DNA of 64,000 nucleotides from an uncultured Alphaproteobacteria bacterium (GTDB lineage Bacteria; Pseudomonadota; Alphaproteobacteria; UBA8366): positions 80,879-144,878 of the forward strand of contig CAVQDH010000006.1 of NCBI GenBank assembly GCA_963711215.1, in the 5' to 3' direction. How positions within the stretch are numbered: position 1 is the stretch's first letter; each line of letters opens with the position of its first letter. Below, one piece after another: positions 14,172 to 60,631 of the stretch. The notes beneath the pieces are model-generated. The model saw only the letters and a list, made by a program, of their open reading frames with translations, was not told the DNA's origin and did no database searches. A program made the translations under genes and the position numbers.

Positions 14172-15931
14172 CTAGAAGTCCTCGTCGTCCAGATCGAGTA
14201 CGGTCGCGGCGCCGTTGATGACGGTGTCCGCCAAGGCCTGCGCCTGGGGCAGGATGTGCTCGCCGTAGAAGCCGGCGGTCGCACGTTTCGCGCCATAAAA
14301 TCGGTCATCCGCATTTTCGGAAAGACGCTCGGCGGCGACGCCGGCCGCTTTCGCCATCATGGCGCCGCCGGCAACCGTGCCGAACAGGCGCAAATAGGGC
14401 GAGGCGCCCGCCAGTGCGGCGGCCTGATTCCGGGCGCCGCTCTCGACCAGCCAATCCGTCGCTTTTTCCAGCGCGCCGATCGCCTGGCCCATGCGGCCGG
14501 GCAAACCCGCGGCGGGTCCGAGCGTGCCGGCGTCGAGGGCGGCGATATCCCGGCGCAGCGCGGCGATATAGGTCCGCGCCGCGGCGCCGCCGTCGCGCAG
14601 GATCTTCCGGGTGACGAGATCGATCGCCTGGATGCCGTTGGTGCCTTCATAGATCGGCGCGATCCGGGCGTCGCGATAGTGCTGCGCCGCGCCGGTCTCC
14701 TCGATATAGCCCATGCCGCCATGCACCTGGATGCCGAGCGAGGCGACCTCGACGCCGGAATCGGAGCACCACGCCTTGACCACCGGCGTCAACAGGTCGA
14801 TGCGGGACTTGGCGGCGTTGCGCACCGCTTTGTCCGGGTGGCGCTTGGCGATATCGAGCGATGCCGCCGCGTCATAAGCGAAGGCGCGCATCGCCTCGGT
14901 CTGCGCCTTCATGGTCATAAGAATGCGCCGGATGTCGGGATGCTTGATGATTGGGCCGAACTGCACGCGGCTGCGCGCATAGTCGAGCGCCTGCTGGTAG
15001 GCGCGCTCGGCGATCGCCAGGCCGGACAGGCCGATATTCATGCGCGCGTTGTTCATCATCGTGAACATGCAGCGCAGGCCTTCATTCTCCTCGCCGACGA
15101 GATAGCCGATCGCGCCGTCGTTGTCGCCATAGGACATGACGCAGGTCGGGCTGGCGTGGATGCCGAGCTTATGTTCGAGCGAGACGCAGCGCAGGTCGTT
15201 GCGCTGGCCCGGGCTGCCGTCCGCGTTGACCAGGAATTTCGGCACGATGAACAGCGAGATTCCCTTGCTGCCCGCCGGCGCGTTCGGCGTGCGGGCGAGC
15301 ACCATATGGATGATGTTGTCCGTGTAGTCGTGCTCGCCGTAGGTGATGAAGATCTTCTGCCCGGTGATCCGGTAGCGGTCGCCGTCCGGCACCGCGCGGC
15401 TCTTCAGCGCGCCGAGGTCGGAGCCGGCCTGCGGCTCGGTCAGGTTCATCGTGCCGGTCCATTCCCCGGACACCAGCTTCGGCAGGTAAGTGGCTTTCTG
15501 CCGGTCGCTGCCATGCGCGCTCAGCAGCTCGACCGCGCCCATCGTCAGGATCGGGCCGAGCGACCAGGCGGTGTTCGCCGCCGCCCAGCTTTCCATCGCC
15601 GCGGCGGTCACCAGCCATGGCAGGCCATGCCCGCCATACGCCGGATCGAAGGGAATGCTCGGCCAGCCGCCGTCGACGAAGGCGCGATAGGCGTCCTTGA
15701 ACCCGTCGGCGGTGCGCACGACGCCGTTCTCGACCGTGGCGCCCTGCTTGTCGCCGGACGCGTTGAGCGGCGCCAGGATGTCGCGCGCCAGCTTGCCGGC
15801 TTCCTCGACGATCGAGGCGGCGAGCTCTTCGTTCACTTCCTCGCAGCCGGGCAGCCGGCGACGCTGTCGAGCAGGCCGAGCTCGTTCAGGGTGAAGGCGA
15901 TGTCGCGGAGCGGTGCGCTGTAGGTCGTCAT
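14172..15931 (-). pseudogene. long-form acyl-CoA dehydrogenase (about 595 aa), frameshifted near the 5' end as sequenced
   Basis: True N-terminus MTTYSAPLRDIAFTLNELGLLDSVAG (ATG at 15931) is in a different frame from LPGCEEVNEEL.... Apparent 1-nt deletion near 15854. Confidence 0.85.
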
Positions 15932-16046
15932 GCTCGGCCGTTGCCTGCGTTATAGGGGACGCGCTCAGGGGCGTGTCCGAGGCTGCCATTCTGGACCGGC
16001 GGGGTTAACAAAGCGGAAACCCGCACAGCCCAATAAATTGTCGCGT

Positions 16047-17484
16047 TTACAACATTTTGCCGGGGTTCAGGATGCCCTTCGGGTCGAGCGCCGCCTTGAT
16101 CTGGCGCATCAGCCCGAGGTCGAGCGCCGGCTTGTAATGGCGCAGCTCTTCCCGCTTCAGTTGGCCGATGCCGTGCTCGGCGCTGATCGAGCCGCCCATC
16201 TCGACGACGATGTCGTGCACGATGCGGTTGACCTCGTCCCAATGCGCCAGGAACGCCTTGCGGTCCATCGGCTTCGGCTGCGAGAAGTTGAAATGGAGAT
16301 TGCCGTCGCCGACATGGCCGAAACTGCAGGGCCGTATGCCCGGCATGTAATCGATGACTGCCTGGGTCGCCCGGCGGAAGAAGGCCGGAATGGCGCTGAC
16401 CGGCACGGAGATGTCGTGCTTGATGCTGCCGCCCTCGATCGCCTGCGCTTCCGTGATGCCCTCGCGCAGCTTCCAGAAGCTGGCGCGCTGCGCTTCCGAC
16501 TGGGCGATCGTGGCGTCCAGCACGAGGCCGTCCTCGAAGGCGCTTTCGAGCAGCGCTTCCATGTTGGCCGCCATGCCGCTGTCGCCGCGCGCGCCGGAGA
16601 ACTCGATCAGGGCGTATAGGTCGTAGCGCTTCTCCAAAGGATCCACGACACCGGGGATATGCGCCGTCGCCAGATCGACGCCGAAGCGGCCGATCATCTC
16701 GAAGCTGGTGACCGCGTCGCCGCTCGCCTCGCGGGCGCGGGCGAGAAGCTCCAGCACCGCGTCGACGTCGCGCACGGCAGCGAAGCAGGTCTGCACGTCC
16801 TTCGGCAGCGGAAACAGCTTGAGCACAGCCGCCGTAATGACGCCGAGCGTGCCTTCGCTGCCGACGAACAGGTGCTTCATGTCGTAGCCGGTGTTGTCCT
16901 TGCGCAGGCGGCGCAGGCCGTTCCAGACCTCGCCGGACGCCAGCACGACCTCGAGACCCAGCACGAGCTCCCGCGTGTTGCCGTAGCGGAGCACATTGAC
17001 GCCGCCCGCGTTGGTCGAGAGGTTACCGCCGATCTGGCAGGAGCCCTGCGCCCCCAGGCTGAGCGGAAACAGCCGGTCCGCATCGGCCGCGGCGCGCTGG
17101 ATGTCCTGCAGGATGCATCCCGCGTCCGCCGTGATCGTGTAGTTCAGCGGGTCGAGGTCGCGGATGCGATTCATGCGGCCGAGATTGAGGATGATCTCGT
17201 TGCCGCTCGGATGCGGCGTCGCCGCGGCGCACATGCTGGTGTTTCCGCCCTGCGGCACGACGGCAATGCCGTAGTCGCTGCAAAGGGTCATGACCTGCGC
17301 GACCTCTTCGGTCGACGCGGGCCGCACCATCAGGGCGCATTTGCCTGTGTAATGGCCGCGGCGGTCGGTCAGCCAGGGTGCTAAGGTCGTCCGGCGCGTC
17401 GATCCATCCCTTGTCGCCGACGATCGATTTGATCCTCGCCAGTGCCTCGCCGCTGGGCGGGCCTGCGGATGCGTCGGGCGCCAT
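16047..17484 (-). pseudogene. FAD-linked oxidase (GlcD / D-2-hydroxyacid dehydrogenase-like), frameshifted as sequenced
   Basis: N-terminus MAPDAS...IKSIVGDKGWIDAPDD is in one frame. LAPWLTDRRGHYTGKCALMVRPASTEEV and the FAD-binding body are in another. Extra base near 17382. Confidence 0.8.
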
Positions 17485-17598
17485 GCCGTCTACCCCCTGG
17501 ATTGCCGAAAGCCAGTCGCTACAGGGATAAGGATGTAGAGCAACCCGCCGGACAGGTCAAAGGCCCGCCTTTTGAAATATATGATCCTCGTTGGAAGG

Positions 17599-18348
17599 TC
17601 ACGGGGTGTGCGATTCGCCCCCGTCGCCCTCCCAATAGGCCCGGCCGAAATTGAACGGGAATTTGGCGTTGCCGGTATCCGAGCCCGGCGTTCCCGTGGC
17701 GGCGGCAATGGCAGCCGGGTCTACGCTGGCCCGGGCGTCGACGGGAACCAGGTTCTCGACCGGCTCCTTGGAGAAGGTCACGCTCTTAAGCAGCGCGGCG
17801 ACGCTCGCAACGCTCAGTGATTTGCCTTCCTTTGGGCAAATATAACCGAAAAACACGCGCGACGGACGGTCGAAGGAGTCGCGAGGTTGATGGTCCCATT
17901 CCGAGTTGAAAGCGATACACTCGCGGTTATTCTCGACGATCCGGTAGGTCTGGTAATCGATTTCGCCATGCCACGCCGTAACGTGGCGTTCCGGTCCCCA
18001 GGTCAAGGACTTGCCCCCGTTCACGTTCCAGGTATCGGCCATCCGTGACATCCAGTAATCGTATTCCAGCACATAACTGATGCCGAGCGAGACGTCGTAC
18101 ACCGCTTCCATCGCCAAATCATCGGTTTCGTAACGCGCGTATTCGACATGCTCATAGCCGCCGAGATAGGACACGTGGAGCTGTCGCGCGTTCGCCAGCA
18201 TCGGATCGTTGAAACGAATCAGGCTCCGGTCCGCAGGGATTTCCTTCGCTATTGGATACTTCGCGTCGAACACGCCGGCGCAGGCGGACAAGGCGAGCGA
18301 AACGAAGATAACGGCGACGATCGCGCCGGATTTGCGAAACTGCGGCAT
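17599..18348 (-). CDS. hypothetical lipoprotein
   Basis: Lipobox VSLALSAC after a basic N-terminus. GAGGA RBS. Locally lower GC. No family recognised. Confidence 0.6.
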   Translation of the reverse strand: MPQFRKSGAIVAVIFVSLALSACAGVFDAKYPIAKEIPADRSLIRFNDPMLANARQLHVSYLGGYEHVEYARYETDDLAMEAVYDVSLGISYVLEYDYWMSRMADTWNVNGGKSLTWGPERHVTAWHGEIDYQTYRIVENNRECIAFNSEWDHQPRDSFDRPSRVFFGYICPKEGKSLSVASVAALLKSVTFSKEPVENLVPVDARASVDPAAIAAATGTPGSDTGNAKFPFNFGRAYWEGDGGESHTP

Positions 18349-18522
18349 GAAGGATAGTCCTCCCAGACCGGAAGCGGACGGCGACGGGCCGACCTGCTCA
18401 AATCGGTGGATACTGGCGCTCGATATATGCCAATTTACGCGTCCGTCGAGTCAAGAGAAACTACCTATCAGCGTCAAAACTGCGTGAAGTTCAGCGCAGG
18501 CGTTCCGGAGTGAGGCCCAGCC

Positions 18523-18867
18523 ATGCCGACCAAGAAGAACCCGCTCAAGCTCAACAACCTTCAGCTCAAGGCCCTGACGATCATGCAGGCCTATGCGGGG
18601 ACCGACTATGGCGTGCCGGAAGGCGACGCCGGCGAGATCACCGTTACGATGCCGCCGCCGCACGGCGACCATTTTCACGTCGGCGAGGCGGTCGTTTCGC
18701 TGCGGGACGCCACCGGCCTCGTGAATGAAGGGGTCTGGGCCGCGTTGCAGCGCAAAGGGCTGATCCGTCCGTTGATGTTCCCGACCGTCTGTACGCTGAC
18801 GGCTTCCGGGCTCGCCTACGACACGGGCGTGGGCGAGGCGATCCTCCATCGCGCGCATCACCACTGA
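18523..18867 (+). CDS. hypothetical protein (114 aa, C-terminal HRAHHH)
   Basis: ATG with a GGAGTGAGG RBS and GC3-rich codons. No family recognised. Confidence 0.45.
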   Translation: MPTKKNPLKLNNLQLKALTIMQAYAGTDYGVPEGDAGEITVTMPPPHGDHFHVGEAVVSLRDATGLVNEGVWAALQRKGLIRPLMFPTVCTLTASGLAYDTGVGEAILHRAHHH

Positions 18868-18901
18868 GCGGGAGGCGCCGCCGAAGGCGATCGAACGGGA
18901 G

Positions 18902-19786
18902 ATGATGACGATGCCGCACTATCGCTATCCCGATGCCGTGGTTTCCACGGATTGGCTGGAGGCCCACCTGGGCGATCCGTCGCTGCGGATTTTCGACTGC
19001 ACGATCTATCTGCACTACGAGACGGGGACGGGGCGTCCTTATACGGTGGTGAGCGGCCGCGCGGACTACGATGCGGGCCATATTCCCGGCTCCGCCTTCA
19101 TCGACCTCCAGGCCGAGCTTTCCGACGACGCCAGCCCGTATCGCTTTACGATGCTGCCTTGGGACCAGCTCGCCGATGCCTTCGGCCGCCGCGGCGTTGC
19201 CGATGGGACGCGCGTCATTCTCTACAGCCGCACGAACATGCAATGGGCGACGCGGATCTGGTGGATGCTGCGGTCTATCGGGTTCGACACTGCGGCCATC
19301 CTCGACGGCGGATGGGACAAATGGGCGATGGAGGGACGGCCGTCCTCCGCCGAGCCGCACGCCTATCCCCCGGCTAAGCTGCGGGCGCGGCCGCGGCCGG
19401 CGCTGTTCGTCGGCAAGGAAGCGGTGCGGGCCGCGATCGGCGATGCGCAGAGCTGCACCATCAACGCACTTTCGCCCGATCTGCACAGCGGCGAGAATCC
19501 GCGCTACGGCCGGCCCGGCCGGATACCCGGCAGCGTCAACGTGCCGGTGCGCGCCTTGCTCGACCCGAAGACCCAGGCCTTGAAGTCGCCCGAGGCGGCG
19601 ACCGCGGCCTTTGCCGCCGTCGGCGCCGATCCGTCGAAACGCATGATCGTCTACTGCGGCGGCGGCATCGCGGCCACGCTGGACGCCTTCCTGCTGCTGC
19701 AGCTCGGCTACGAGGACGTCGCCGTGTACGACAACTCGATGAGCGAGTGGGCGAAGGACGAGACCCTGCCGATCGAAACGGATTGA
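18902..19786 (+). CDS. rhodanese-domain sulfurtransferase (thiosulfate/3-mercaptopyruvate type)
   Basis: Two rhodanese domains. Active-site loop VYCGGGIAAT. Confidence 0.85.
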   Translation: MMTMPHYRYPDAVVSTDWLEAHLGDPSLRIFDCTIYLHYETGTGRPYTVVSGRADYDAGHIPGSAFIDLQAELSDDASPYRFTMLPWDQLADAFGRRGVADGTRVILYSRTNMQWATRIWWMLRSIGFDTAAILDGGWDKWAMEGRPSSAEPHAYPPAKLRARPRPALFVGKEAVRAAIGDAQSCTINALSPDLHSGENPRYGRPGRIPGSVNVPVRALLDPKTQALKSPEAATAAFAAVGADPSKRMIVYCGGGIAATLDAFLLLQLGYEDVAVYDNSMSEWAKDETLPIETD

Positions 19787-19809
19787 CGGCCCGGAATTTC
19801 CCGGGCCGT
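19786..19809. terminator. hairpin between convergent genes (possible bidirectional terminator)
   Basis: Perfect 9-bp stem ACGGCCCGG / CCGGGCCGT with loop AATTTC. No clear U tract. Confidence 0.35.
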
Positions 19810-19835
19810 CCATTCCGTCACGTCAGGCCGTCGCG

Positions 19836-21107
19836 TCAGGCGGCGCGACGCCGGTTGCGGCGCCGGGGCCTGCCGCTCTTGGCCGCGTTCGCGTTGGCGG
19901 GGCGCTGCCGGCCGCCGAAGCGTGGCGCCGCCCCGTTCCGGTGGTCCGGCTTCGCGCTTCCCTGCCGTTCCGGTTTCGGGCCTTCGCCGACGACGGTCAG
20001 TTGCCGCTTGATCAGCCGCTCGATGCTCTGCAGCTCCTTGCGCTCGCTCGGGTCGCAGAAGGAGATCGCGATGCCGCTGGCGCCGGCGCGGGCCGTCCGC
20101 CCGATCCGGTGGATGTAGCTCTCCGGATCCTTCGGCAGCTCGTAATTGATCACGTGGGTGACGTCATCGACGTCGATGCCACGGGACGCGATGTCGGTGG
20201 CGACCAGCACCCGCGACCGGCCGGCGCGGAAGCTGTTGAGCGCCTGCTCGCGCGAGGACTGGGATTTATCGCCGTGCAGCGCCGCGGTGCGCACGCCGTT
20301 GGCCGTCAGTTGCTTGGCCACGCGGTCGGCGCCGCGCTTGGTGCGGGTGAAGACGATGACGCGCGACAGGCTCGCATCGGCGAGCAGATCGGTCAGCAGC
20401 TTGCGCTTGGCGCCGCTGTCGGCATGGTGAACCCGCTGGTCGATGCGGTCGACGGCGACCGTCTTGGCGGCGATCTCGACCCGCACCGGATCGCGCAGGA
20501 TCTCGGCCGCGAGGCGCGCGATCTCCTTCGGCATGGTGGCCGAGAAGAGCGCCGTCTGGCGGCCTTCCGGCAGCAGCGCGGTCAGCTTGCGGACGTCGCG
20601 GATGAAGCCCATGTCGAGCATGCGGTCCGCTTCGTCGAGCACGAGATAGCTCGTCCGGCGGATATCGATTCGCCGCTGGTCGATCAGGTCGATCAGGCGG
20701 CCGGGCGTCGCGATCAGGATGTCGACGCCGCGCTCCGTCGCCTTGTACTGCGCGCGCTGGCTGACGCCGCCCATGATGACGGCATGCTTCAGGCCGGTAT
20801 GCCGGCCGTAGAGCTTGATGTTGTCGGCGATCTGCGTCGCCAGCTCCCGCGTCGGCGCCAGGATCAGCGCGCGGGTCGTGCGCGGCAGCGGCGGCCGACG
20901 GTCCTGCGCCAGCCTGTGGAGCAGGGGAAGGGCGAAAGCCGCCGTTTTCCCGGTGCCCGTCTGGGCAATGCCGAGCAGGTCCTTGCCCTGCAGCAGCGGG
21001 GGAATGGCCTTGGTCTGGATTGGAGTGGGGGTCTTGTAGTCCGTGCCGGCAAGGGCACGCAACAGGCTCTCGTTAAGGCCGAGAGCCGCGAATGTAGAGG
21101 TCGTCAA
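19836..21107 (-). CDS. DEAD-box ATP-dependent RNA helicase (RhlE-like)
   Basis: Q motif TPIQ, AQTGTGKT, DEAD (VLDEADRM), SAT and HRIGRTAR motifs. Arg-rich tail. TTG start 7 nt after AAGGAG. Confidence 0.9.
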   Translation of the reverse strand: MTTSTFAALGLNESLLRALAGTDYKTPTPIQTKAIPPLLQGKDLLGIAQTGTGKTAAFALPLLHRLAQDRRPPLPRTTRALILAPTRELATQIADNIKLYGRHTGLKHAVIMGGVSQRAQYKATERGVDILIATPGRLIDLIDQRRIDIRRTSYLVLDEADRMLDMGFIRDVRKLTALLPEGRQTALFSATMPKEIARLAAEILRDPVRVEIAAKTVAVDRIDQRVHHADSGAKRKLLTDLLADASLSRVIVFTRTKRGADRVAKQLTANGVRTAALHGDKSQSSREQALNSFRAGRSRVLVATDIASRGIDVDDVTHVINYELPKDPESYIHRIGRTARAGASGIAISFCDPSERKELQSIERLIKRQLTVVGEGPKPERQGSAKPDHRNGAAPRFGGRQRPANANAAKSGRPRRRNRRRAA

Positions 21108-21565
21108 ACAAAGTCTCCTTGTGCGCCGAATCCGGTCGGTTCGCTACGGAACACCGTGGGTTTCGGCCTGTCGCCTGTCCCCACGCGCACCTGGAGATAG
21201 CGGAAATTCAGAAAAACGTGTCTCGAAATGATAACGCCCGGGCAAGCCCGAGCGACCGCGCAATTGCGAGTTTCACGGCCCCTACATGGTCCCTCGCGAT
21301 CGATAAGTCAAGAATTTCCAAGGGCCTACGACCTGATCCGAGCCAAAAAGCGCCGAAAACCGCGCAATTTGGGGCGCTTGGATCGCGTCCGCGGGGTATG
21401 CCGGTGCCCCTCGGATTGCAAATTTTAACACTCTCGCACTTGTATGGCCGGTGTGGCTGTGCAATGAAAGTCTGCTCGTTGCACGGCACCACGGCGTATC
21501 TTGTTGCTCTGTTCGGCATATGACCAAGCTACTCTGGGAAAAATTGTGCACTTGTCAGTGAAGAT

Positions 21566-21586
21566 GGCCGGCATGGCGTGCCGGCC
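21566..21586 (+). promoter_or_regulatory. stable hairpin in the cspA leader
   Basis: GGCCGGCA-TGGCG-TGCCGGCC lies about 35 nt upstream of the cspA ATG, inside a 512-bp lower-GC intergenic region. Confidence 0.3.
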
Positions 21587-21619
21587 GATACTGAACGCAT
21601 CCAAGTGGAAGGAGTAGCG

Positions 21620-21829
21620 ATGGCTACCGGAACTGTTAAGTGGTTCAACCCGACAAAGGGTTATGGTTTTATTCAGCCGAGCGATGGCGGCAGCGACGCG
21701 TTCGTGCACATCTCGGCCGTGGAACGGGCGGGAATGCATACGCTCCGCGAAGGCCAGAAGGTCGAATACGAGCTGGTGGCGGGCCGCAACGGCAAGTCGT
21801 CGGCGGAAAACCTCGTCGCGATCGACTGA
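21620..21829 (+). CDS. cspA: cold-shock protein (CspA family)
   Basis: [20 protein letters not shown] with RNP1/RNP2 motifs. GGAG RBS. ATG 21620 is preferred over the ORF-track start. Confidence 0.92.
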
Positions 21830-21845
21830 GCGACGCCGGGTCCAG

Positions 21846-22794
21846 CTACCGTCCCGCCGCAGCGCGGCGGAGACGGTCGTTGATCGCGCGGCCGAGGCCC
21901 TGATCGGGGATCGGGGCCACGGCGATGCCGGTGAATTCCGGCCGATCCAATGCATGCAGGTAAGCGAACAGGTTGGCCGCGGCCTCGATGAGGTCGGCGG
22001 CCTCGCTTAGGTTGAGCGTGGCATCGGTTGCGCCGGGCCCGAAGCCCAGCAGCGCTTCGCCGGGCCGGGCATGCGCGGCATCGCGCCGCACGGGCAGGGA
22101 CGGGGCGTAATGGCTCGTCAGCATGCCGGGCGAGCGGGGCGCATGGTCGTCCGCGCCGGCGACGCTCACGGAGACGCCGAGCGCGGCTTCGATCTCTTCC
22201 TGCGGCAGGCCGCCCTGCCGGAGGATGGCCGGCGCCGCGCCGGAAACATCGAGCACCGTCGAATTCCAGGCCGATCGGACAGGGGCCGCCATCGAGGATG
22301 AGGGCGACCCGATCGCCCAGATCCTGCGCCACATGCCGGGCCGTCGTCGGGCTGAGGCGGCCCGACCGGTTGGCGCTGGGGGCGGCGACCGGCACGCCTG
22401 CGGCCCGCAGCAGCCACTGCGCGTCGGCATGGGCCGGGACGCGCACCGCGACGGTGTCGAGGCCGGCGCTCGCCAGAAGCGATAGCCGGCAATCCGGCCG
22501 CCGGGGCAGGACCAGCGTCAACGCGCCGGGCCAGAAGCGGTCGGCCAGCAATCCGGCCGTTTCATTGAAGGCGACGAAGGCCTCGGCCGCCGTGCGGTCG
22601 GGGACATGCACGATCAGCGGGTTGAAGCTGGGACGGCCCTTGGCGGCGAAGATTTCGGCCACCGCCCGGTCGTTCGTGGCGTCCCCGCCGAGGCCATAGA
22701 CCGTTTCGGTCGGAAAGGCGACGAGCTCGCCCCGGCGCAGCGCGGCGGCGGCCAATGCGATTGTTTCCCCGGAAATTGGCGAAATCTTTACCAT
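21846..22794 (-). pseudogene. sua5: L-threonylcarbamoyladenylate synthase (Sua5/TsaC2 type), frameshifted as sequenced
   Basis: YrdC domain (VAFPTETVYGLGGDA...SANRSG) runs to ...ILDGGPCPIGLE. The Sua5 C-domain (STVLDVSGAAPAILRQG...) continues in another frame. Extra T in GAATTC at 22261-22266. Confidence 0.85.
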
Positions 22795-25197: not shown

Positions 25198-25889
25198 ATG
25201 ATGCATGACCGCGTCCCGGCCGGCCGCATGGATCGCCGCCGGTTCCTGGCCATGCTGGCGGCGGCGTCTTGCCTTCTCGCCCTTGGCGGCGCGGCACGGG
25301 CATCTGCAGGCCGCGCCGTGCCGCTTGCCGCAGAATTTACATCGCGGGGCATGTGCGCCATGCCAGCATCATCGTCGACCGGCGGGACTTCGACCCGGCG
25401 CAGAGCATCGGCTCACCGGAATTCACATCCAAGGACTGGCTGGAATTCGGCTGGGGCGATGCGGATTTCTACCAGGCGGACGGGGAAGGCATCCTGCTGG
25501 GGCTGAAGGCGCTGCTATGGCCGACGGCCGCGGTGATGCACGTATACGGATTCGACGGCGCACCGGCAGCGAGCTTCCCGAAAAGCGAGGTGCTGGCGCT
25601 CGATCTGACGGCGGATGGCTATGCGCGGCTGCTGGCCTTCCTCAGATCCGCCTTCACGCGCGATGCCGCGGGGCGCGTGAAGCGGCTCGGGCCCGGTCTT
25701 TACGGTCTCAGCTTCTTCTACGCGGGCGAGGGGCGCTATGACGCCTTCCACACCTGCAACACCTGGACGGCGGAGGCGCTCGCGGCGGCCGGCTTTCCGA
25801 TCGATCCGAGCGATATCGGAACGCTCGGCCAGTTCATGGATCGCGTGCGCGGCAAGATGCACGCGGCCTGCGGCGCCGGCGCGGCCTAA
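25198..25889 (+). pseudogene. DUF2459-like secreted protein, probable frameshift
   Basis: Tat-like signal (RRRFLAMLAAASCLLALGGAARA) is in one frame. The conserved body (IYIAGHVRHASIIV...HTCNTW) is in another. Junction near 25332. Confidence 0.5.
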
Positions 25890-30217: not shown

Positions 30218-30400
30218 GTCCGCCGCGTGTGAACCGCTTTCCGGTTCCGCTGACGATGCCCGCTGGCCCCAACATGGGCAAGGGGCTTCTGCGGGGCGAT
30301 GCAGGAAGCGCGTGACAAGCGCGAGTTGACGACGGATCATCGGCTTAACGAAAATCGGAGCCGAACGGTTCCGGAGATCCATTCCAGGAGGACCCTGCCC

Positions 30401-31465: not shown

Positions 31466-31546
31466 GGGACCGGTACCGGGAACGTTCGTAATTCGAGGGG
31501 CGTTCATGGCGAAACGCCCGCGTGGCATTAATTTCGGAGGATTCTG

Positions 31547-44292: not shown

Positions 44293-44475
44293 GCGATTCC
44301 CCTGTCGCCGTTCCGCCGCCGCCGAGCGTATTCGGTTTCGCAGCCGCAGGAACACTTCCCGGCGCCTGTCCGTCGCCCATCGCCCGCTCCTGTCGTGTCC
44401 CGCGATCCGCAGAAGCCTATGCAATCGCCGCGATCCGGGCAATTTCAAACGGCGGCTACGGAATTTCGAAATCGA

Positions 44476-44772
44476 TCAACGGCCGTATTGCTGGCAGCCG
44501 AGCACGTCCCAGTCGCCGGGACTGCCGTTCGGGCGGCTGCGGTAGATCGTGAACTTGATCGCGTTGGCGACGTCGAAGGTGACGAAGTCGGAGATGCGCG
44601 CCTCGGGAATACTGAACAGCCGGGCCATGCTCTCGCGGGTGATTGCGCCGCTCTCGACGGTGCGCCGGTAGGCCGCCGCGTCAGGGAAGATGATGTCGAA
44701 GGTGATTTGGTTGACGCCCGCGTTCTTGCTGCGGATCGTCGAGGCAAGCTCGCTCAGCCTGGTCATCGTCAT
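44476..44772 (-). CDS. DUF4387 domain protein
   Basis: RSKNAGVNQITFDIIF...FDVANAIKFTI pattern. ATGA overlap with the AtuA-like gene. Confidence 0.7.
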   Translation of the reverse strand: MTMTRLSELASTIRSKNAGVNQITFDIIFPDAAAYRRTVESGAITRESMARLFSIPEARISDFVTFDVANAIKFTIYRSRPNGSPGDWDVLGCQQYGR

Positions 44773-46136: not shown

Positions 46137-46149
46137 GGAAGGCATCCTT

Positions 46150-48042: not shown

Positions 48043-48081
48043 GATGGACTGCTCCGGAAAAGGGCGGCCTGCAGGCGCTCG

Positions 48082-49128: not shown

Positions 49129-49145
49129 GGCAGGACTCCCTTGCC

Positions 49146-50000
49146 CTATTCCCTGTGGAAATATCCCTCGTTATCGGCGAGGGCTTCGAAGCGGTTCAGC
49201 GCGTCCAGCGTCCGCTCCCTGTCGACGAGGCTCAGCGCGTTCAGCAAGGCGTTGATGAGGATCATCGGCGCGCAATGGAAGGCGACGAAGGACGCGGACT
49301 CCGCCGGCGCATAGAGGCTGACATCGCCCTGCAGCGGCGAGAAAGGACTGTCCGTGATCGTCACGGTCTTGATCTTCCGCTCGCGCGCGTGGCCGAGCAG
49401 GTCGACCAGCTCCTGCAGATAGCGCGGAAAGCCGATGACGATCAGGCAGGCGGCCGCGTCCATCCTGTTCAGCCGGTCGTAAGTATCGGTGGAGACGGCA
49501 AGCGCGCGTGCGGCGTCGAGGGCGATCTTGTTGAGCCCGAACCACAGATGATTGGCGAGCGACGCGGTGCTCCGGGACCCGACGATCAGGATGCCGGAGG
49601 CGTGATGAATGGTCTCGATCGCGGCGTTGAAGGCATTCGGATCATAGCCTTCTTCCAGGCTCGCGATGTTTTCCATCTCCTTCGCGATCACCGCCTTCAG
49701 CGGACTGTCATCCCGCCCCTTGTGCGTATAGGTCAGGCGGAAGCGGTCGGTGCCCCGGAGGTCGGCGCGCACGAGGCGTCGGATCTCGCGCTGGAAGGCC
49801 GGATAGCCGCTGAAGTCGAGCGCCTTGGCGAAGCGCACGATCGTGGCCTCGCTAACGCCCGAAAGCCCGGCAAGCTGCGTGATGGTCGAAAAGGCGACCG
49901 TCTGGTAGTTGGCGGAAATGTACTTCGCCAACACGCGCTGAATTGCGCGAAAGGTCGTCCGCCTGCTCCCGGAGCCGGGTGATGAGCGTTGCTTCGGCAT
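49146..50000 (-). CDS. MurR/RpiR family transcriptional regulator
   Basis: HTH_6 N-domain (ITQLAGLSGVSEATIVRFAKALDFSGY) plus a SIS domain. 284 aa. Confidence 0.85.
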   Translation of the reverse strand: MPKQRSSPGSGSRRTTFRAIQRVLAKYISANYQTVAFSTITQLAGLSGVSEATIVRFAKALDFSGYPAFQREIRRLVRADLRGTDRFRLTYTHKGRDDSPLKAVIAKEMENIASLEEGYDPNAFNAAIETIHHASGILIVGSRSTASLANHLWFGLNKIALDAARALAVSTDTYDRLNRMDAAACLIVIGFPRYLQELVDLLGHARERKIKTVTITDSPFSPLQGDVSLYAPAESASFVAFHCAPMILINALLNALSLVDRERTLDALNRFEALADNEGYFHRE

Positions 50001-50045
50001 TGATCGGCTAGCTGTTCCATCTGCCGCGAGATCGAGGCGTCAAAA

Positions 50046-50061
50046 TGAAAAATAATTTTCA
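50046..50061. promoter_or_regulatory. inverted repeat TGAAAA-ATAA-TTTTCA in the AT-rich divergent control region
   Basis: Read directly. Lies in the most AT-rich stretch of the window (about 50030-50100), between the rpiR-like and aminotransferase genes. Confidence 0.3.
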
Positions 50062-50249
50062 TGATGCTATATTATGCAAAATTATATGTCAATTGCGCCT
50101 TTGCCTGCCGGTGCCGGTGCGCTTCGCCTCGATTGCCTTCCGCGCCAGCCCGCATTTTCGATTTCTTTAATTGACGACCCTTCGTCCGGCTTGGCACTCT
50201 CTCTGAAAGCGGCAATGCGCCCGCACACCCCAATCGAAAGAGCCAGCCG

Positions 50250-51568: not shown

Positions 51569-52295
51569 ATGGCGGAGACGGCGGCTCAGCGGCATTCGGA
51601 AACCCTGGCGCACTGCGCGGTCCTGGCTGACCTGCCCGCGGGCGAGATCAACCGCCTCGACACGCAATGCGTCTGGCGGCGGTTCGAGGCCGGCACCGAG
51701 ATCCTGAGCCATCAGGACGACACGACGGATGTCTACTTCGTCGCCACCGGTACGGTGCGGGTGATCATCGCGTCGATCCAGGGCAAGGACACCGTCTTCC
51801 GCGACATCGAAGCCGGCGACTATTTCGGCGAGATGTCGGCGATCGACGGCAAGGGCCGGTCGGCGAGCGTCGTGGCGCGCACCAACGCCACGGTCGCCAA
51901 GATGCCGGCGGCCGTGTTCCGCGATCTGGCGATGGCCCATCCGGCCGTCTGCTTCCGAATCCTCGAGCGCGCGGTCCGCCAGATCCGCTATCTCTCCGAG
52001 CGCATCAACGAGTTCCGCACCCTCGACGTCCGCCATCGCATCTATGTCGAGCTGCTGCGTCTCGCCCGGCGCGCCGGCGGCCGGGAGCGGCGAGGCCGTC
52101 ATCTCGCCGCCGCCGACCCATCAGGAGATCGCCGACCGGGTCAGCACGCGGCGCGAGGCCGTGGCCCGCGAGCTGAAACAGCTCGAGCGCGACGGCCATC
52201 TTCGCCGCCGGCGCGGCGCGCTGGTGATCGCGGACGCCGCCGCGCTTGCCGAGATGGTCGAGAAGGCCCGCCAGGGCCTCGACGAAGATGATTGA
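51569..52295 (+). pseudogene. Crp/Fnr family transcriptional regulator, frameshifted as sequenced
   Basis: The cNMP-binding domain (GDYFGEMSAIDG) is in the first frame. The HTH (THQEIADRVSTRREAVARELKQLERDG) is in a second frame. Junction within about 52055-52090. Confidence 0.8.
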
Positions 52296-52449
52296 AATCA
52301 ATCGATAATTCGATCCGCCACCGGTTCCGGTTCGGGTATTCCGGCCGCGCCGTTTCGCTGTGTGCGAAATCGCACGCTCGCTCCTTCCCGTTTCGCCGAT
52401 GATCCCCTCCATCGGCAAGTCAACGAACGGACTTGGAAGGAGATTAGAA

Positions 52450-52670
52450 ATGTCAGCCATCATGCATCACAAGGCCACTGACGATTGCTCTCACGATCGG
52501 CCTGGTCGCGGCCTCGGCGGGCGCGTATCCGCTCGAGCGGATCGTCAGCCGGCAAGCTGCCGATTTTCCAGAGCGCGTCGGTCACCGACACGGCGACCGA
52601 CGATCAGGGGCCGGCCTATGTCGGGACGACCCCGCTGATCGGAAACGGCGACTTGGAAGACGACTTCTAG
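52450..52670 (+). pseudogene. possible small secreted protein readable only through two frame shifts
   Basis: GGAAGGAG RBS and ATG 52450. The signal-like LTIALTIGLVAASAGA is in frame +1. The GC3-rich tail GKLPIFQSASVTDTATDDQGPAYVGTTPLIGNGDLEDDF is in frame +2. Confidence 0.3.
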
Positions 52671-52738
52671 AAACGCCAATGCGTTCCTGGTCCGATCGTC
52701 TTCCGAAGCTTCAATGCCGATAAATCCGGCGGCCCCGC

Positions 52739-54770
52739 TCACAGCCCCACGACGTGGCGCGGGCGGCCCCAGTCTTGCGCTTCCTTCGCCGCGCGGGGCA
52801 CGTCCTCTTCCAGCATGAGCCGTTCCGCGACCAGCCGCTTCGCGGCCGCGACGATCGCCGCGACGTAGCCCTCCGGCGATCCGTACCGCTCCAGCACCGA
52901 CTTGCGCGGGTCTTCCGTGAACGCACGCTCCTCGGCTGAGTCCGGGAAGGGGATGTAGCTGCCGTTGAACTCGTATCCCGCGCGCGTGCCGTAACCGCGC
53001 GCCCGCAGGCTCCAGCCGGTATAGGTGCCGAGCGGCGCCTGCACCATCGGCGCACGGACGCCCGCGATATCGTTGCCGTCGGCATCCGTCGCCGGGATCT
53101 GCACGACATAGCCATCCGGGTTCAGCACTGCCGGCGGCTCCTTCGACAGGATGCCGCGCTCGACGTCGGGGCCATGGTCGAGCAGCGGCAGCGCCGCCGG
53201 GCCGGCCGAGATCATCTGCCCGGGGATGCGCGGGATATTTCTCGCGCCATTCGATGTAGGTCGCGAGCGTGCCGTCCTTGCGCATCGGGATGCGGGAGTC
53301 GGGCGGCGGCGTGCCGTCGGTGATCCAGGCGTCCATGGCGTCGAGCAAGCGCGCGGAACAGCATCGAGGTGCTGACGATGTTGCTGAAGTTCTGGCAGAT
53401 GCCCTTGTTCGGCACGGTCCGCAGCGGGCTCGACATGTGCTGCGAGCTGGACCAGAGATAGCAGCGCACGTTTGCCGGCTGGGGCAGATCGTTGCCCTGG
53501 GTGTCGGTGTGCACGAGCGAGCCGCGCCGCTGCCAGTATTCCGTCGCGCTCTGGCTGTGCAGGACATGCGGATCGGTCTCCGGCCGCTTCAGGATGGCGT
53601 CCGTCTTGCCGGTCAGGTGGTCGGTCGACTCCGCATAGGAGAAGGGGAAGCGGTCGGCGAGGATGTAGTGGTCCTCGTACTGCTGCCCGGCCATCGAGAC
53701 GGCATTGGCGAAGCGGTGATTGAGCCACATCTGCCCGCACCGGCGACATGCGGCATCACGCCGTCGAACACCTTGCGGCCTGCCGCGTCCGCGTTGAAGC
53801 CGAGATAGACGAAGTCACGGATGCAGCGGCCCGTCTGCGAGCGGCCCCAGCCGTAGGCCTTCTCGACCGGCGCCAGCGGGTTGGCGTTGCCGGCCGCGTC
53901 CTTGCCGCCGTATTTGAGGAAGCTGACGAGGTCGCGCACCGCGACATGGCCGAGCCCCATGACCAGCGGGTCGCGGCCTTCGTAGACCAGCTCGTAGATC
54001 CAGCCCGGCTGGAAGCCCTTCGCCATGTAGACGAAGCTGTCGGACGGCATGATCGCCGTTTCGTCGGCGCCGCGGTTATGGCTCTCGCCCGTCACCGCCG
54101 CGCCGCTCAGCACCTGCGCGAACTGCCACTCGGTCCGGCGGGATCGGGGATGCGCGTCGTTGTGCGGGTAGCGACGCTTGGTCAGCCGCGCCTTCGTGGT
54201 GTCGAGCGAGACGGCGGGGTGGCTGCGCGTGCCGGCGCGGCCCGAGAGCGGGAAGCAGAGCGTCGGCGCCACGGGCGTGAACTCCTGGCGCACCGGGCCG
54301 GTAATCGGCTTGCCGTTGTCGGTCGCGACGGGAAGCTTCATCGTCACGCGGTTGTTGCCCGGCAGCAGGTCGCCCTGCCAGGCGCCCCAGACGAAGCTGT
54401 AGCCGCGGCGGAACAGGAAGCCGTTGCCCGCATGCTCCAGCGCCTTCGGATCGTTCGAGGCGCGCGCGTCGTTGAAGAACTGTAGCGCGCGCAGGTTGCC
54501 GCGGTTGCCATAGTCGAAGAAGACGCGGCGGTTGCCCTTGGCCTTGTCCGCCGGGCGCAGCATCAGGAAGTCGGCAGTGAACTCGACCAGGCCGTCCTTG
54601 TTGACGGGCGCCTTGTCGATATCGGTGACGGCGGCCTGGGCGGCGGCCTTCGGGTCGACCGCGTAAAGCGCGCGGCCGCGCAGGCGCTCATAGGCGCCGG
54701 TGTCGCCGAACGCATGGCCGTCGGCGAAGGATGTGCATTCTGCGATTTCGAGAGTGATCTTGCTGGGCAC
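52739..54770 (-). pseudogene. alpha/beta-hydrolase-domain protein (Abhydrolase_10-like), three frameshifts as sequenced
   Basis: Readable across four frames: ...GRKVFDGVMPHVAGAG | QMWLNHRFANAV...MLFRAL | LDAMDAWITDGTPPP...EKYPA | IPGQMISAGP...HVVGL. Junctions near 53733, 53347 and 53229. GTG start at 54770 after GAAGGA. Confidence 0.6.
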
Positions 54771-54902
54771 GGCATCGGTCCTTCGTGCGAGGGGGCGGGA
54801 TCGGGGCAGCCCAGTATGGCACATTCTTCGCGGCGGTCAGCCTTCGCAGCGGACAGCCGGTCCGGTTATCATGATCGGATAAGGAACCGCAGCGAGGCAG
54901 GC

Positions 54903-55352
54903 ATGGTAACGGGCAAAGACATCATCGGGTCGTGGCTCATGGTCGACCGGGGTACCGACAGCGAGGCGGACCGGCAGCAGGCGCGCGTCCGCTACGGCGA
55001 CGATCCGAAGGGGTTCATGATCTTCGCGCCCGACGGCTGGATGAACGCCATCGTCTGCTGGGGCGGGCGGCCCGCGCTCTCCGGGTCGCCGGACTGGCAT
55101 TCCGATGCCCCGGATAACGAAAAGATCCGCGCGTTCGACACCTACCTATCCTATGGCGGCCGCTGGACGGTCGAGGACAGCGTGCTGACTACGCAGGTGG
55201 AATTCGCGCTCAACCCCGGCTGGGTCGGCGGCAAGCAGGTTCGCCGGCTCGAGATGACGGACGACGGCTATCTCATCCTCAAGCTGTCGCGCGCCTGGCC
55301 GGACGGCCGCGTCATGAACGGCTGGGTGCGCTGGAAGCGGGTGCCGGCGTAA
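54903..55352 (+). CDS. lipocalin-like domain protein
   Basis: 149 aa. The IIGSWLMV...FDTYLSYGGRWTV pattern resembles the bacterial lipocalin-like family. ATG 54903. Confidence 0.5.
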   Translation: MVTGKDIIGSWLMVDRGTDSEADRQQARVRYGDDPKGFMIFAPDGWMNAIVCWGGRPALSGSPDWHSDAPDNEKIRAFDTYLSYGGRWTVEDSVLTTQVEFALNPGWVGGKQVRRLEMTDDGYLILKLSRAWPDGRVMNGWVRWKRVPA

Positions 55353-55360
55353 GACTTGGC

Positions 55361-55804
55361 CTAGGATTCAGCCGGTTTCGTCGGCCGCCACCAGTCGGGA
55401 AGCGCGTCGAATTTCGGAATGTCGTCCTCGACGCAGGACCACGACGCGCGGGACGCCCAGAAGATCCGCGCTTGCGGCGCCATGTCGGGCGGCTGATCGA
55501 GGGAACCGGCCGGGATGACGATCTCGAGCCCGCTGCGCGTGTGGTGCGGCAACGGCGCTCCGCAATGCCGGCAGAAGGTCGTCGAAAAGCTCTTCGCCGA
55601 CGGAAGGTCGTAGCGCACCGTGGCGTCCTTTCCCGACGTCCATTCAAAACGATCGGGCAGGACATAGAGGTTCGTCGCGTAGTCCGCGCCGGTCGCTTTG
55701 CGGCATCGCGAGCAATGGCAGTGGGCGAAGCGCAGGTACGGCTTCTTCACCCGGTAGGTCACGGCGCCGCAGAGGCAACTGCCGTCGAGGTGGTTCGCGG
55801 TCAT
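55361..55804 (-). CDS. GFA-family (CENP-V/glutathione-dependent formaldehyde-activating-like) protein
   Basis: GSCLCGAV...CHCSRCRK zinc-cysteine motifs. Confidence 0.8.
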   Translation of the reverse strand: MTANHLDGSCLCGAVTYRVKKPYLRFAHCHCSRCRKATGADYATNLYVLPDRFEWTSGKDATVRYDLPSAKSFSTTFCRHCGAPLPHHTRSGLEIVIPAGSLDQPPDMAPQARIFWASRASWSCVEDDIPKFDALPDWWRPTKPAES

Positions 55805-55817
55805 CGTCAATGCGCCT

Positions 55818-57225: not shown

Positions 57226-58431
57226 ATGCTCGATACCTCTCTCAGCTATCTCACCGATCCCGACGCTGAAAATGCGTCGCCCTCGCAGCGCCGCGCGGTC
57301 GACGAACGCGCGCTCATGGACGCCTATTCGGAGGCCGTATCGTCGGTCGTCGATGCGGTCGGGCCCGCCGTCCTGCGCGTGGACTCCCGCACGGGCGAGG
57401 GCAAGACGGCGCGTGGCGGCGTCGGCTCCGGCGTCGTCATTTCGCCCGACGGCCTCGTGCTGACCAACGCGCATGTCGTCGGCGGCGCGCGGGAGATCCA
57501 GCTCACGGATATCGAGGGCCGGAGCGGCAAGGCGCGCCTCCTCGGCATCGATCCCGACACCGATCTGGCGCTCCTGCGTACGGACGCCGACCGCGGCCTC
57601 GCCTTCGCGCCGCTCGGCGATTCGAAGGAGCTGCGCCGCGGCCAGCTCGCGATCGCGATCGGCAATCCGCTCGGCTTCGAATCGACCGTCACCGCGGGCG
57701 TCGTCTCCGCGCTCGGGCGCTCGCTGCGCTCTTTCTCCGGGCGAATGATCGAGGACGTGATCCAGACCGACGCGGCGTTGAACCCGGGCAACTCGGGCGG
57801 CCCGCTCGTCTCCTCGCGCGGCGAGGTGATCGGCATCAATACCGCGGTGATCGTCGGCGCGCAGGGCATCTGTTTCGCGGTGGCGAGCAACACCGCCAAC
57901 CACGTGCTGAGCGAGATCATCCGGCACGGCCGCGTGCGGCGCTCCTATATCGGCGTCGCGGCGCAGACCGCGCCGGTGCCGCGCCGCAGCGCGCTGGCGG
58001 CCGACCTCGACAACCGCTTCGGCGCGATGCTGACCTCGGTCGAGCCGGGCGGACCGGCCGACGCGGCCGGGCTGATGTCCTATGACCTGATCGTGCGCCT
58101 CGACGGCGAGAGCGTGACCGGCGTCGACGACCTCATCCGTCTGCTCGACCACAGCCGCATCGGCAAGCGGCTTCGGATCGACGCGCTGCATCTCGGGAAG
58201 TTGCGGCGCTTCGAGGTCGATCCCGACCGAGCGGCCGCAGACCGGCGGCTAAGCCCGCCGCACGCGCGGCGCGATTGGACGGCTTCCGCCATTCTGGTCA
58301 GAATGCAGGACGGCAGATCGTTGCGCCCGGCGTCGGACATGCCGGTGCGGACGCGGCCGGGCTTTCCGCGCGTCGCGACCTGCCTCCCGCCGTCTCTGTG
58401 CCGCCATCGCAAAAAGGACTTACCGGAATGA
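57226..58431 (+). CDS. S1C (HtrA/DegP-like) serine protease with a PDZ domain; the 3' end is possibly extended by a frameshift
   Basis: TNAHVV / DLALL / GNSGGPL catalytic triad plus PDZ. After ...RRFEVD, the +1 frame reads PTERPQTGG-stop (58250-58252), whereas the open frame adds about 60 Arg/Pro-rich residues. Confidence 0.85.
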   Translation: MLDTSLSYLTDPDAENASPSQRRAVDERALMDAYSEAVSSVVDAVGPAVLRVDSRTGEGKTARGGVGSGVVISPDGLVLTNAHVVGGAREIQLTDIEGRSGKARLLGIDPDTDLALLRTDADRGLAFAPLGDSKELRRGQLAIAIGNPLGFESTVTAGVVSALGRSLRSFSGRMIEDVIQTDAALNPGNSGGPLVSSRGEVIGINTAVIVGAQGICFAVASNTANHVLSEIIRHGRVRRSYIGVAAQTAPVPRRSALAADLDNRFGAMLTSVEPGGPADAAGLMSYDLIVRLDGESVTGVDDLIRLLDHSRIGKRLRIDALHLGKLRRFEVDPDRAAADRRLSPPHARRDWTASAILVRMQDGRSLRPASDMPVRTRPGFPRVATCLPPSLCRHRKKDLPE

Positions 58432-59075: not shown

Positions 59076-59211
59076 CCGCCGTCCGGCCGCGGCCGCGTGA
59101 CAGGCGGCATTTTGGCAGTTTCACCCCTTATTGTTGGCATGCATGCCGTCTCGTGCGCGAGAATGGGCCGGCTTATGGTCGCGCGGCTAACGGCAACCAG
59201 GAGTGAGACCA

Positions 59212-59487
59212 ATGAAACGTTTTCTGATCGAACGCGATATCCCCGGCGTAGGCGGCATGAACGGCGAGCAGCTCAAGCAGGCCGCCGCGACGTCGAACGA
59301 GGCCCTCGCGCAGCTCAAGGGCAAGGCGCAGTGGGTGGAATCCTTCGTCGCCGACGACAAGACCTTCTGCGTCTATCTCGCCGAGGACGAGGCCGCCGTT
59401 CACGAGCACGCGCGGCTGAGCGGCTTTCCGGCCAGCAAGGTCACCGAGGTGCGTGGCCGCATCGATCCCCTGACCGGCGCAAAATGA
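59212..59487 (+). CDS. DUF4242 domain protein
   Basis: MKRFLIERDIPG...WVESFVADDKTFCVY pattern. AGGAG RBS. ATG 59212. Confidence 0.65.
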   Translation: MKRFLIERDIPGVGGMNGEQLKQAAATSNEALAQLKGKAQWVESFVADDKTFCVYLAEDEAAVHEHARLSGFPASKVTEVRGRIDPLTGAK

Positions 59488-59598
59488 CGGGCGAGAAATG
59501 ATCGGCGTTGCCGCCGCCCGGCGGAATGTATCCGTCGGGCGGCGCGCCGCAACGGAAGGGCGAGACAACGAATGCCGCCGGCGAAGGCAGGCATCGCC

Positions 59599-60631
59599 AT
59601 GCTGAATGTCACCGTGCTTCTGCTCGACGACAATTTCGCATCGACGGCGCTCGGGCCGATCGAGGTGTTTCATGCGGCCGGTCTGCTATGGAACCAGCTC
59701 ACGGGCGTCGAGGCGCAGCCGCGATTTCGCGTGACCGTCGCGTCGGTCGATGGCGCCGGCGTGACGAGCCCCTATGCCGTCGCTTGTCGCCTCAGGCCGC
59801 GATCAGCCGACATCGAGCATGCGGACCTCATCGTCGTGCCTGCCTCCGGGCTCGACTTCGACAATCAGTTCGCCCGCAACGCGGCGCTCCTGCCGTGGCT
59901 GCGGGAATGGTACGGCAAGGGCGCCCACATCGCGGGCATCTGCTCCGGCGCGGCCTTTCTGGCGGAAGCGGGCTTGCTGGACGGGCGGCAGGCAACGACG
60001 CATTGGGCCGTCGCCCGAGGAGCTTGCGCGCCGCTATCCGCAGGTGGACTGGCGGCCCGACATGTTCATCACGGAAGACGAGCGGCTCCTGTGCAGCGGT
60101 GGCGTCTATTCCGCGATCGATCTCAGCATCTATCTCGTCGAGAAGTTCTGCGGCCACGAAATCGCGGTGAACTGCGCGAAGTCGCTGCTCGTCAACATGC
60201 CGCGGTCGCACCAGTCGGGCTATGCGGTGCTGCCGCTGTCCCGGCCGCACACGGATGAGCGGATCCGCGCGGTCGAGGCCTTCATCGACGAAAACTACGC
60301 GCAGGACCTGTCGTCCGAGGCGCTGGCCGCCCGCGCGAACATGAGCCCGCGCAACTTCATCCGCCGCTTCAAGGCCGCGACCGGCCGCCTTCCCGGCAAC
60401 TACCTGCAGACGCTGCGGATCACGGTGGCGAAGCGGATGCTGGAAGAGGGCGACCGCAACGTGCAATCCGTCAGCCTGGCGGTCGGCTACGGGGATCTCG
60501 CTTTCTTCCGCTCGCTCTTCCGGCGCTACACCGGCATGACGCCGGGGGAATATCGCAGCCGGTTCGGCCGCGCCGCCGAGGCGGCCTTTACCGATCCCTC
60601 CAGGCGGGCGCGCGGGCCAGGCGCCGCCTGA
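59599..60631 (+). pseudogene. GlxA-type AraC family regulator (DJ-1/PfpI domain + HTH), frameshifted as sequenced
   Basis: DJ-1-like domain (GICSGAAFLAEAGLLDGRQATTHWAVA) is in the first frame. EELARRYPQVDW... and the AraC HTH are in a second frame. Junction near 60014-60017 (GCCC run). Confidence 0.8.

Follow-up and report, generated by a model that had tools for sequence, protein, structure and literature searches.

Single-base indels that split conserved genes are familiar as errors of long-read (Nanopore/PacBio continuous long-read) assemblies, where they are captured by IDEEL-type full-length-protein scores and where the literature stresses indels in homopolymers (PMC9262707; PMC12313526). 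Many frameshifted genes, accessory metabolic and transport genes included, are also found in the pseudogene-rich genomes of Mycobacterium leprae, Sodalis, Shigella and host-restricted Salmonella, and a further class of Nanopore miscalls is tied to methylation motifs. Here, we analysed a 64,000-nt (64-kb) stretch of contig CAVQDH010000006.1 (assembly GCA_963711215.1) from an uncultured alphaproteobacterium, hereafter the window, in which 30 small coding indels and 1 nonsense codon affect 16 of roughly 50 genes, about one-third of those between 15.8 and 60 kb. In all likelihood these frame disruptions are consensus errors of the deposited sequence, and the genes of the organism itself are intact. 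The lesions resemble long-read errors in that they are single-base indels splitting conserved genes, are absent from independent (presumably short-read) assemblies, fall in coding and non-coding DNA alike, recur at other sites in a sister contig and vary in density, and differ from them in being insertion-biased (18/20) and mostly outside homopolymers. Compared with the pseudogene-rich genomes, the window has one nonsense codon, several lesions per gene, core genes struck, no rise in the ratio of nonsynonymous to synonymous substitution rates (dN/dS), lesions not common to conspecific populations, and no large deletions in the repaired genes, insertion sequence (IS) elements not having been separately searched.

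The evidence carrying this conclusion comes from five JGI contigs, which were found via cluster look-ups of proteins identical or 99% identical to window proteins and which, judged by their sequences, are independent and belong to the same species-level population as the window. Four were from JGI sample 3300082225 and covered window positions 15872-18519 (L165, 99.1% identity), 19243-22292 (L004, 99.5%), 29924-34052 (L170, 98.6%) and 52006-55539 (L169, 96.9%), and the fifth, from JGI sample 3300082211, covered 17438-19037 (L166, 99.9%). A more distant relative, ENA ERZ25039539 contig_48684 (L001/L003), with 85-89% DNA identity to the window, was used as the outgroup for polarity. Over 13.9 kb, the JGI contigs and the window differed by 20 indel events, namely 18 window insertions (one a dinucleotide) and 2 window deletions. 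All 12 coding lesions covered by the JGI contigs (17385, 22262, 33494, 52071, 52476, 52545, 53231, 53350, 53733, 54133, 54144 and 54155) were absent there, and the FAD oxidase (478 aa), aldolase (212 aa), MR_MLE (388 aa), small open reading frame (ORF, 72 aa) and hydrolase (675 aa) were intact in these contigs. The initial annotation, made from the letters of the window, had favoured sequence error over gene decay, and the near-identical independent contigs bear this out, lacking every lesion that they cover. Its proposed check on close relatives gave the same answer, the orthologues in L001, L003 and a further reference, L002, being intact and in frame at the compared sites.

The other 8 of the 20 indels were intergenic and were likewise specific to the window. 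They comprised an extra base at 16041 (absent from L165 and L003), an extra T at 18453 (absent from L165 and L166, thus from two samples, and from L003), an extra G at 33053 and TC at 33100-33101 (both absent from L170), and, relative to L169, an added A at 52338, a lost C at 52675, an added T at 52688 and an added A at 52707, with L001 siding with the JGI contig at 52675, 52688 and 52707. Because the indels occur in intergenic DNA too, the process that produced them is blind to coding sequence. The substitutions that separate the window from the JGI contigs were symmetric, with 72 unique to the window and 102 unique to JGI, which is the ordinary strain divergence shared by both branches, whereas at least 18 indels were window-derived and 0 were JGI-derived, with a binomial probability of ~1e-7 given the substitution split. 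Against the 85-89%-identical relative, dN/dS was 0.09-0.23 in the repaired broken genes and 0.01-0.32 in their intact neighbours; the two being indistinguishable, the lesions have left no evolutionary footprint. The extra bases are therefore absent from independent assemblies, derived on the window branch and without evolutionary trace. A consensus error is further favoured because four insertions within 162 nt of a ParA-like gene, six lesions in one hydrolase gene and a lesion in Sua5/TsaC are biologically implausible as real mutations. Sua5/TsaC acts in the t6A pathway and is essential in most bacteria.

The frame changes themselves were recovered by three approaches. A homology-free codon-usage model, trained on the long ORFs of the window and applied by Viterbi segmentation into six coding frames plus a non-coding state, switched frame on the same strand at 15852, ~17370, 22257, 23060/23162, 25335, 33498, 39036, 45764/45818/46000, 47557, 48274/48371/48793, 52056, 53234/53349/53731 and 60014. 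Pfam scans run on the individual frame fragments found one family continuing at consecutive hidden Markov model (HMM) positions in another frame in Sua5, the class II aldolase, TauD, TAXI, Crp, Abhydrolase_10 and GlxA. With a purpose-written frameshift-aware protein-to-DNA aligner using orthologues as references, 13 genes aligned over essentially their whole length once frame changes were allowed. Besides L001/L003, the protein references were L002, metagenome homologues of the TRAP operon, S1C protease homologues and a 226-aa DUF2459 homologue (P0299). The ~25 frame changes in 15 genes listed in the initial annotation are thus real features of the deposited sequence, all junctions being matched within 15 nt. 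That list had missed five frame-restoring coding indels (41717/41743 and 54133/54144/54155).

The lesions are spatially clustered, as had been noticed by eye. The 30 coding events gave an index of dispersion of 2.0-3.1 (p about 1.5e-4); of the 29 intervals between them, 11 were ≤250 nt, where 3.2 were expected. The zones described as reading cleanly held up in part: 29.9-33.05 kb is truly indel-free against a near-identical JGI contig, but 39.3-44.7 kb holds the 41717/41743 pair, and intergenic window-only indels are present as well.

The sequence context, by contrast with the initial description, was not one of short homopolymers, nor were the lesions mainly gains or losses of one nucleotide within runs. 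Among the 20 exactly located indels, 6 repeat the neighbouring base (run 1 to 2), 2 remove a base from a run of 2 nt and 12 have no clear run context, so that 8/20 touch a 1-2-nt run and 0/20 a run of 3 or more nt; 18 of the 20 are insertions, mostly outside repeats. The homopolymer concentration typical of long-read errors is hence missing, a trait that is typical of the class and not obligatory for it. Most lesions lie in non-repetitive GC-rich sequence (the window has a GC content of 66%), and several insertions sit in a GCG context, creating CGCG. The intact contexts that had been guessed from the letters were right for GAATCG to GAATTCG at 22262 and GCC to GCCC at 60016, while the lesion at 33494 is an extra G after CCC and not a longer C run. 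GANTC, which in Alphaproteobacteria is the CcrM motif, is the exact site of three lesions, namely 22262 (GAATC to GAATTC) and 41743 (GATTC to GATCGTC) in the window and one in the relative L001 at window-equivalent 32535 (GAGTC to GAATTC). These three may be methylation-linked basecalling errors, as in known motif-dependent Nanopore miscalls; however, most lesions carry no such motif, and a general GANTC association was dropped as marginal (2/30 window lesions vs 0.33 expected).

The indels were found to coincide with strain variation. In the JGI-covered stretches, 2.05 mismatches lay within 25 nt of window indels vs 0.70 at random (p = 2e-4), and the contig with the highest strain divergence, L169 (3.1%), had the highest indel density (3.7/kb), the lowest, L004 (0.5%), having 0.3/kb. 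In the small-ORF region, the allele of the JGI strain is highly divergent, with 17 JGI-unique substitutions in 52492-52611, where the window holds five indels. Such proximity to strain-variable positions suggests that several strains were mixed in polishing, and not that homopolymers alone were miscalled. In the mechanism that we propose, the consensus would in some stretches gain spurious single bases and less often lose one, and each spurious indel would shift the frame, so that gene callers split or extend the gene. Consensus quality would be uneven along the contig, and the errors would thus cluster, favouring a strain-specific 5.8-kb island and stretches that vary between co-occurring strains, in which depth for this haplotype may be lower or reads of several strains may be mixed during polishing. 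Low or mixed coverage is accordingly a plausible cause of the clustering.

The provenance of the window is consistent with such errors. Exact protein look-ups placed its proteins on one contig of 386,952 bp that is present at both NCBI and ENA. In a genome scan with the S1C protease gene as query, the closest genomes were Hyphomicrobiales/Xanthobacteraceae-like, including Pseudolabrys and Bradyrhizobium; these genus- or family-level relatives lacked synteny and were used for the protease C-terminus, taxonomy and provenance. Many of the closest GTDB genomes were metagenome-assembled genomes (MAGs) from the Microflora Danica long-read catalogue (MFD-LR), recorded as 'uncultured Alphaproteobacteria bacterium isolate MFDxxxxx.bin ... 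contig_N'. This catalogue was built from Nanopore data only, with Flye assembly and a single round of Medaka polishing, and its authors describe Nanopore-associated errors in lower-coverage MAGs (PMC12313526); the same group found that R10.4 bins below ~40x need short-read polishing and that indels fragment gene calls (PMC9262707). Judging from its nearest MAGs, the window very probably belongs to a Nanopore-only (Flye plus Medaka style) MAG of a soil Hyphomicrobiales/Xanthobacteraceae-like alphaproteobacterium. A known plasmid was ruled out, as megablast of 25 kb against PLSDB returned matches of ~74-75% identity with ~4% query cover only.

Lesions of the same kind were found in the relative's contig_48684, which carries ~9 of its own at sites where the window is intact (L001 16100-17140 and 8690-8850; L003 3360-3660). 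Its MR_MLE gene is split into 184 + 209 aa, Lactamase_B_3 is split with three indels, Iso_dh is split into 307 + 52 aa, the OtnK-like gene has a compensating pair (window-equivalent 33887/34015) and the aldolase has two insertions. One of the latter lies 5 nt from the insertion in the window and involves a different base, which marks it as an independent event. The 33887/34015 pair was rejected as a window lesion since it belongs to L001. From its 'contig_N' record naming, the relative's contig may come from the same pipeline as the window, and L002, from an ENA assembly accession close to that of L001/L003, appears clean over 22 kb.

Several points weigh against attributing the lesions to the consensus. 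The case would be firmer on reads, with their coverage and per-site support, than on the assembled sequences on which it is built. The JGI contigs, being 0.1-3% diverged, are strictly other strains and could be intact while the window strain is broken. For 18 of the 30 coding lesions, in the acyl-CoA dehydrogenase, ParA (4), DUF2459, TauD, [2Fe-2S] subunit (Fer2; 2), AtuA (3), TRAP, TAXI (3), S1C and GlxA genes, the comparison was with 70-90%-identical relatives or Pfam models. The platform is linked to the window contig through the nearest MAGs and not by a project accession. Furthermore, an insertion-biased spectrum mostly outside homopolymers departs from the homopolymer deletions expected of Nanopore data by the textbook, and the lesions of the strain-specific island, which are deletion-biased and include the nonsense codon, are unlike those elsewhere.

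This island underlies the alternative that survives best, and which we regard as unlikely, namely that most lesions are artefacts but that the seven frameshifts and the TGA of the island mark the true decay of a transporter operon that was acquired recently and is unused. The 5.8-kb segment (44360-50160) is absent from both L001 and L002, encodes an RpiR regulator, a TAXI binding protein, a fused TRAP permease, AtuA and DUF4387, and forms the densest lesion cluster lacking a close reference. When metagenomes were scanned with the TRAP permease, homologues of ≤76% identity only were found, which were used as protein references and not as a same-population test; the best match to the island was 74-76%, with no near-identical independent contig. 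All its lesions affect minus-strand genes. The AtuA-family gene has three -1 events (45775, 45819 and 45998), giving tblastn high-scoring segment pairs (HSPs) in three frames against L012 and L013; its main fragment matches Pfam AtuA 139-420, and it aligned to the AtuA of L005 at 81% identity. In the fused TRAP permease, one +1 insertion at 47568 makes the 626-aa permease of L005, L006 and L007 (Pfam DctM) align in two frames, and the N-terminal part contains the in-frame TGA (47962-47964), the only nonsense codon among the lesions, which stands opposite W in L013 and opposite F or Y in the other homologues and is probably a TGG to TGA change, either an error or a real mutation. The TAXI solute-binding protein gene has three -1 events (48278, 48364 and 48804), with four HSPs in alternating frames against the 354-aa protein of L005/L006/L007 and Pfam NMT1_3 running 5-76 and then 73-212.

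The island spectrum, 6 deletions, 1 insertion and the TGA, thus differs from the insertion bias elsewhere in the window and speaks for a separate origin. However, codon usage and GC content at third codon positions are fully gene-like in every island fragment, the proteins, once repaired, match their homologues over the full length at 70-81% identity and show no further damage, and eight lesions in 3 kb without a large deletion better fit a locally poor consensus, such as a low-depth minor-strain insertion would give. Deletions are, moreover, the commoner raw Nanopore error. As a separate observation at 46150-46195 (minus strand), the TRAP frame runs into the AtuA start with no stop near 46185, whereas in L005 the permease gene ends in a stop and AtuA is read in a different frame; the readthrough may stem from a further indel or be a natural fusion.

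A second alternative, which appears very unlikely, takes all the lesions as genuine, very recent pseudogenes of a strain undergoing massive gene inactivation in a mutator or reductive lineage, with the JGI copies being those of sister strains. If true, ~30 fresh indels in 16 of ~50 genes would place the lineage at the onset of explosive indel-driven decay or indicate an indel-specific mutator. The JGI contigs are indeed not identical to the window (0.1-3.1% diverged), the nonsense codon looks true, and several targets are accessory, TauD, AtuA, TAXI-TRAP and DUF2459 being missing from the nearest relative. The initial annotation had confined the decay alternative to such accessory loci, but core genes (Sua5, ParA, FAD oxidase, acyl-CoA dehydrogenase and Crp) are struck as well. 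The polarity of the indels set against that of the substitutions, the same single-base insertions in intergenic DNA and the unchanged dN/dS, which gives no sign of relaxed selection, all argue against it. So do the several hits per gene (four in ParA, six in the hydrolase) with no build-up of substitutions, the like lesions that a sister contig, named in the same style, carries at different positions, and the failure of the lesions to reappear in two JGI samples. Genuine decay would also leave about one-third of the genes in 44 kb dead. In addition, the repaired genes align end to end with their homologues, with no large deletion or insertion interrupting them, no separate search for IS elements having been made. 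Single-base insertions outside homopolymers are an unusual class of spontaneous mutation.

The chance that the frame changes are functional recoding, by programmed ribosomal frameshifts, transcriptional slippage or phase-variable contingency loci, is negligible, as nothing beyond the existence of the frame changes favours it, whereas the lesion sites vary in context and show neither simple-sequence tracts nor slippery heptamers, the frame is kept in orthologues and near-identical contigs at every site compared, and like indels occur in intergenic DNA.

With consensus error as the preferred explanation, the significance of the lesions is that of a data-quality warning and not of biology. About one-third of the genes in 15.8-60 kb of a public contig are mis-annotated as split, truncated or extended, and pseudogene counts, metabolic reconstruction, protein-family clustering and training sets using this MAG, or sister contigs with like errors, inherit the errors. 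The error spectrum, insertion-biased, non-homopolymer and clustered at strain-variable segments and the island, points to a mixed-strain consensus and is mildly useful for polishing Nanopore-only MAGs.

Among the individual genes, those covered by the JGI contigs were resolved to the base. In the FAD-linked oxidase gene (minus strand), one extra C at 17385 (coding strand GGACGAC[C]TTAGC) is absent from L165, and the L003 protein is intact too. The Sua5/TsaC gene (minus strand) has one extra T at 22262 (coding strand GGAAT[T]CGACGG), at the GANTC site; the aligner placed the event at 22263. It separates Sua5_yciO_yrdC (HMM 2-160/178) from Sua5_C in the Pfam scan and is the sole indel in 3,049 bp against L004, which encodes G-L-E-S-T-V-L-D; the 315-aa protein of L003 is intact. 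In the class II aldolase (OtnC-like) gene (minus strand), one extra G at 33494 (coding strand CGGCCC[G]AAGG; aligner position 33497) is absent from L170, and L002 and L168 are also in frame; Pfam Aldolase_II runs through HMM 2-83 and then through 82-183 in the other frame. The Crp/Fnr regulator gene (plus strand) has one extra G at 52071 (CCCGGC[G]CGCC; aligner position 52070), which is absent from L169 and from L001, whose protein is intact at 241 aa, and which puts cNMP_binding and HTH_Crp_2 in different frames. The 72-aa small ORF (plus strand) carries two +1 insertions, a C at 52476 and a T at 52545 (aligner positions 52480 and 52547), both missing from L169; it is intact in L001 as well.

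The Abhydrolase_10 hydrolase gene (minus strand) was the most heavily hit, with frame-shifting lesions at 53231 (extra base), 53350 (extra base) and 53733 (missing base), for which the aligner gave 53234, 53349 and 53738. L169 differs at exactly these three positions, the L001 protein is likewise intact at 675 aa, and Pfam Abhydrolase_10 matches HMM 149-211 and 329-426 in separate frames. Three further +1 insertions within 22 nt (54133, 54144 and 54155) restore the frame with ~7 codons scrambled, as supported by comparison with L169, L001 and L167. A similar compensated event was found in the [2Fe-2S] small subunit gene of an IorAB-like oxidoreductase (minus strand), where a frame-restoring pair at 41717 (+1) and 41743 (+2) adds one extra codon, scrambles 8 codons and swaps the conserved SSHPLQKA for RPAIRCRT; both L001 and L002 read SSHPLQKAW. 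Because this ORF seems intact, the pair is overlooked by frame-based screens, and the gene exemplifies intact-looking genes that carry scrambled motifs.

The remaining lesions were defined by comparison with more distant proteins. In the acyl-CoA dehydrogenase gene (minus strand), a 1-nt deletion at 15856 cuts off the first ~25 codons, as indicated by a DNA gap, the frameshift-aware alignment to the intact 586-aa orthologue of L003 and the Pfam domains on the main fragment. The ParA-like ATPase gene (plus strand) has four separate +1 insertions (23010, 23068, 23150 and 23172), seen as four 1-nt DNA gaps and in a three-frame reading; the L003 orthologue is intact at 213 aa, the identity is 92.5% after repair, and the Walker-A fragment matches Pfam CbiA/MipZ/ParA. 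Beside this gene, further single-base insertions at 22841, 22849 and 23545, between the Sua5 and ParA genes and at the stop of ParA, were seen against L003 only and could be real divergence. The DUF2459 gene (plus strand) has one frame change (+2 or -1) at 25318-25332, between the signal peptide and the domain; the domain lies entirely within the downstream frame, and P0299 aligned over its full length (84% identity) with a single frame change at ~25318. In the TauD-family dioxygenase gene (plus strand), a frame change (+2 or -1) at 39042-39043 divides Pfam TauD into HMM 19-198 and 211-267, and the L002 orthologue is intact at 348 aa. The segments holding TauD (38.1-39.3 kb) and DUF2459 (25.2-25.9 kb) are those missing from the nearest relative.

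In the S1C (DegP-like) protease gene (plus strand), one +1 insertion at 58213-58223, probably CC to CCC, replaces the final ~8 residues near the C-terminus with a 60-aa read-through; 10/10 homologues end in FEV.P.ER plus 3-8 residues, the window reads FEVDP with TERPQTGG and a stop in the next frame, and the L001 orthologue has 312 aa. The GlxA-type AraC regulator gene (plus strand) has one extra C at 60016 (GTCGCC[C]GAGGAG) between DJ-1/PfpI and HTH_18; the assignment comes from Pfam (DJ-1_PfpI 27-125, then HTH_18 1-80 in the next frame) and a local three-frame reading, with no close orthologue.

Two further candidate frameshifts were rejected. Position 12253, at the N-terminus of FolP, lies in the 5' leader, the conserved start being the ATG at 12293, and 7659 is a normal boundary between the biotin carboxylase and biotinyl carrier protein genes, with a stop, a ribosome-binding site and the ATG of the 70-aa carrier protein. 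A search of the 64-kb window for tRNA genes and Rfam features found none. At 3400-9515, the window carries an intact carboxylase cluster that consists of a family III CoA-transferase, two carboxyltransferases, an AccC-like biotin carboxylase and the separate 70-aa biotinyl carrier protein.

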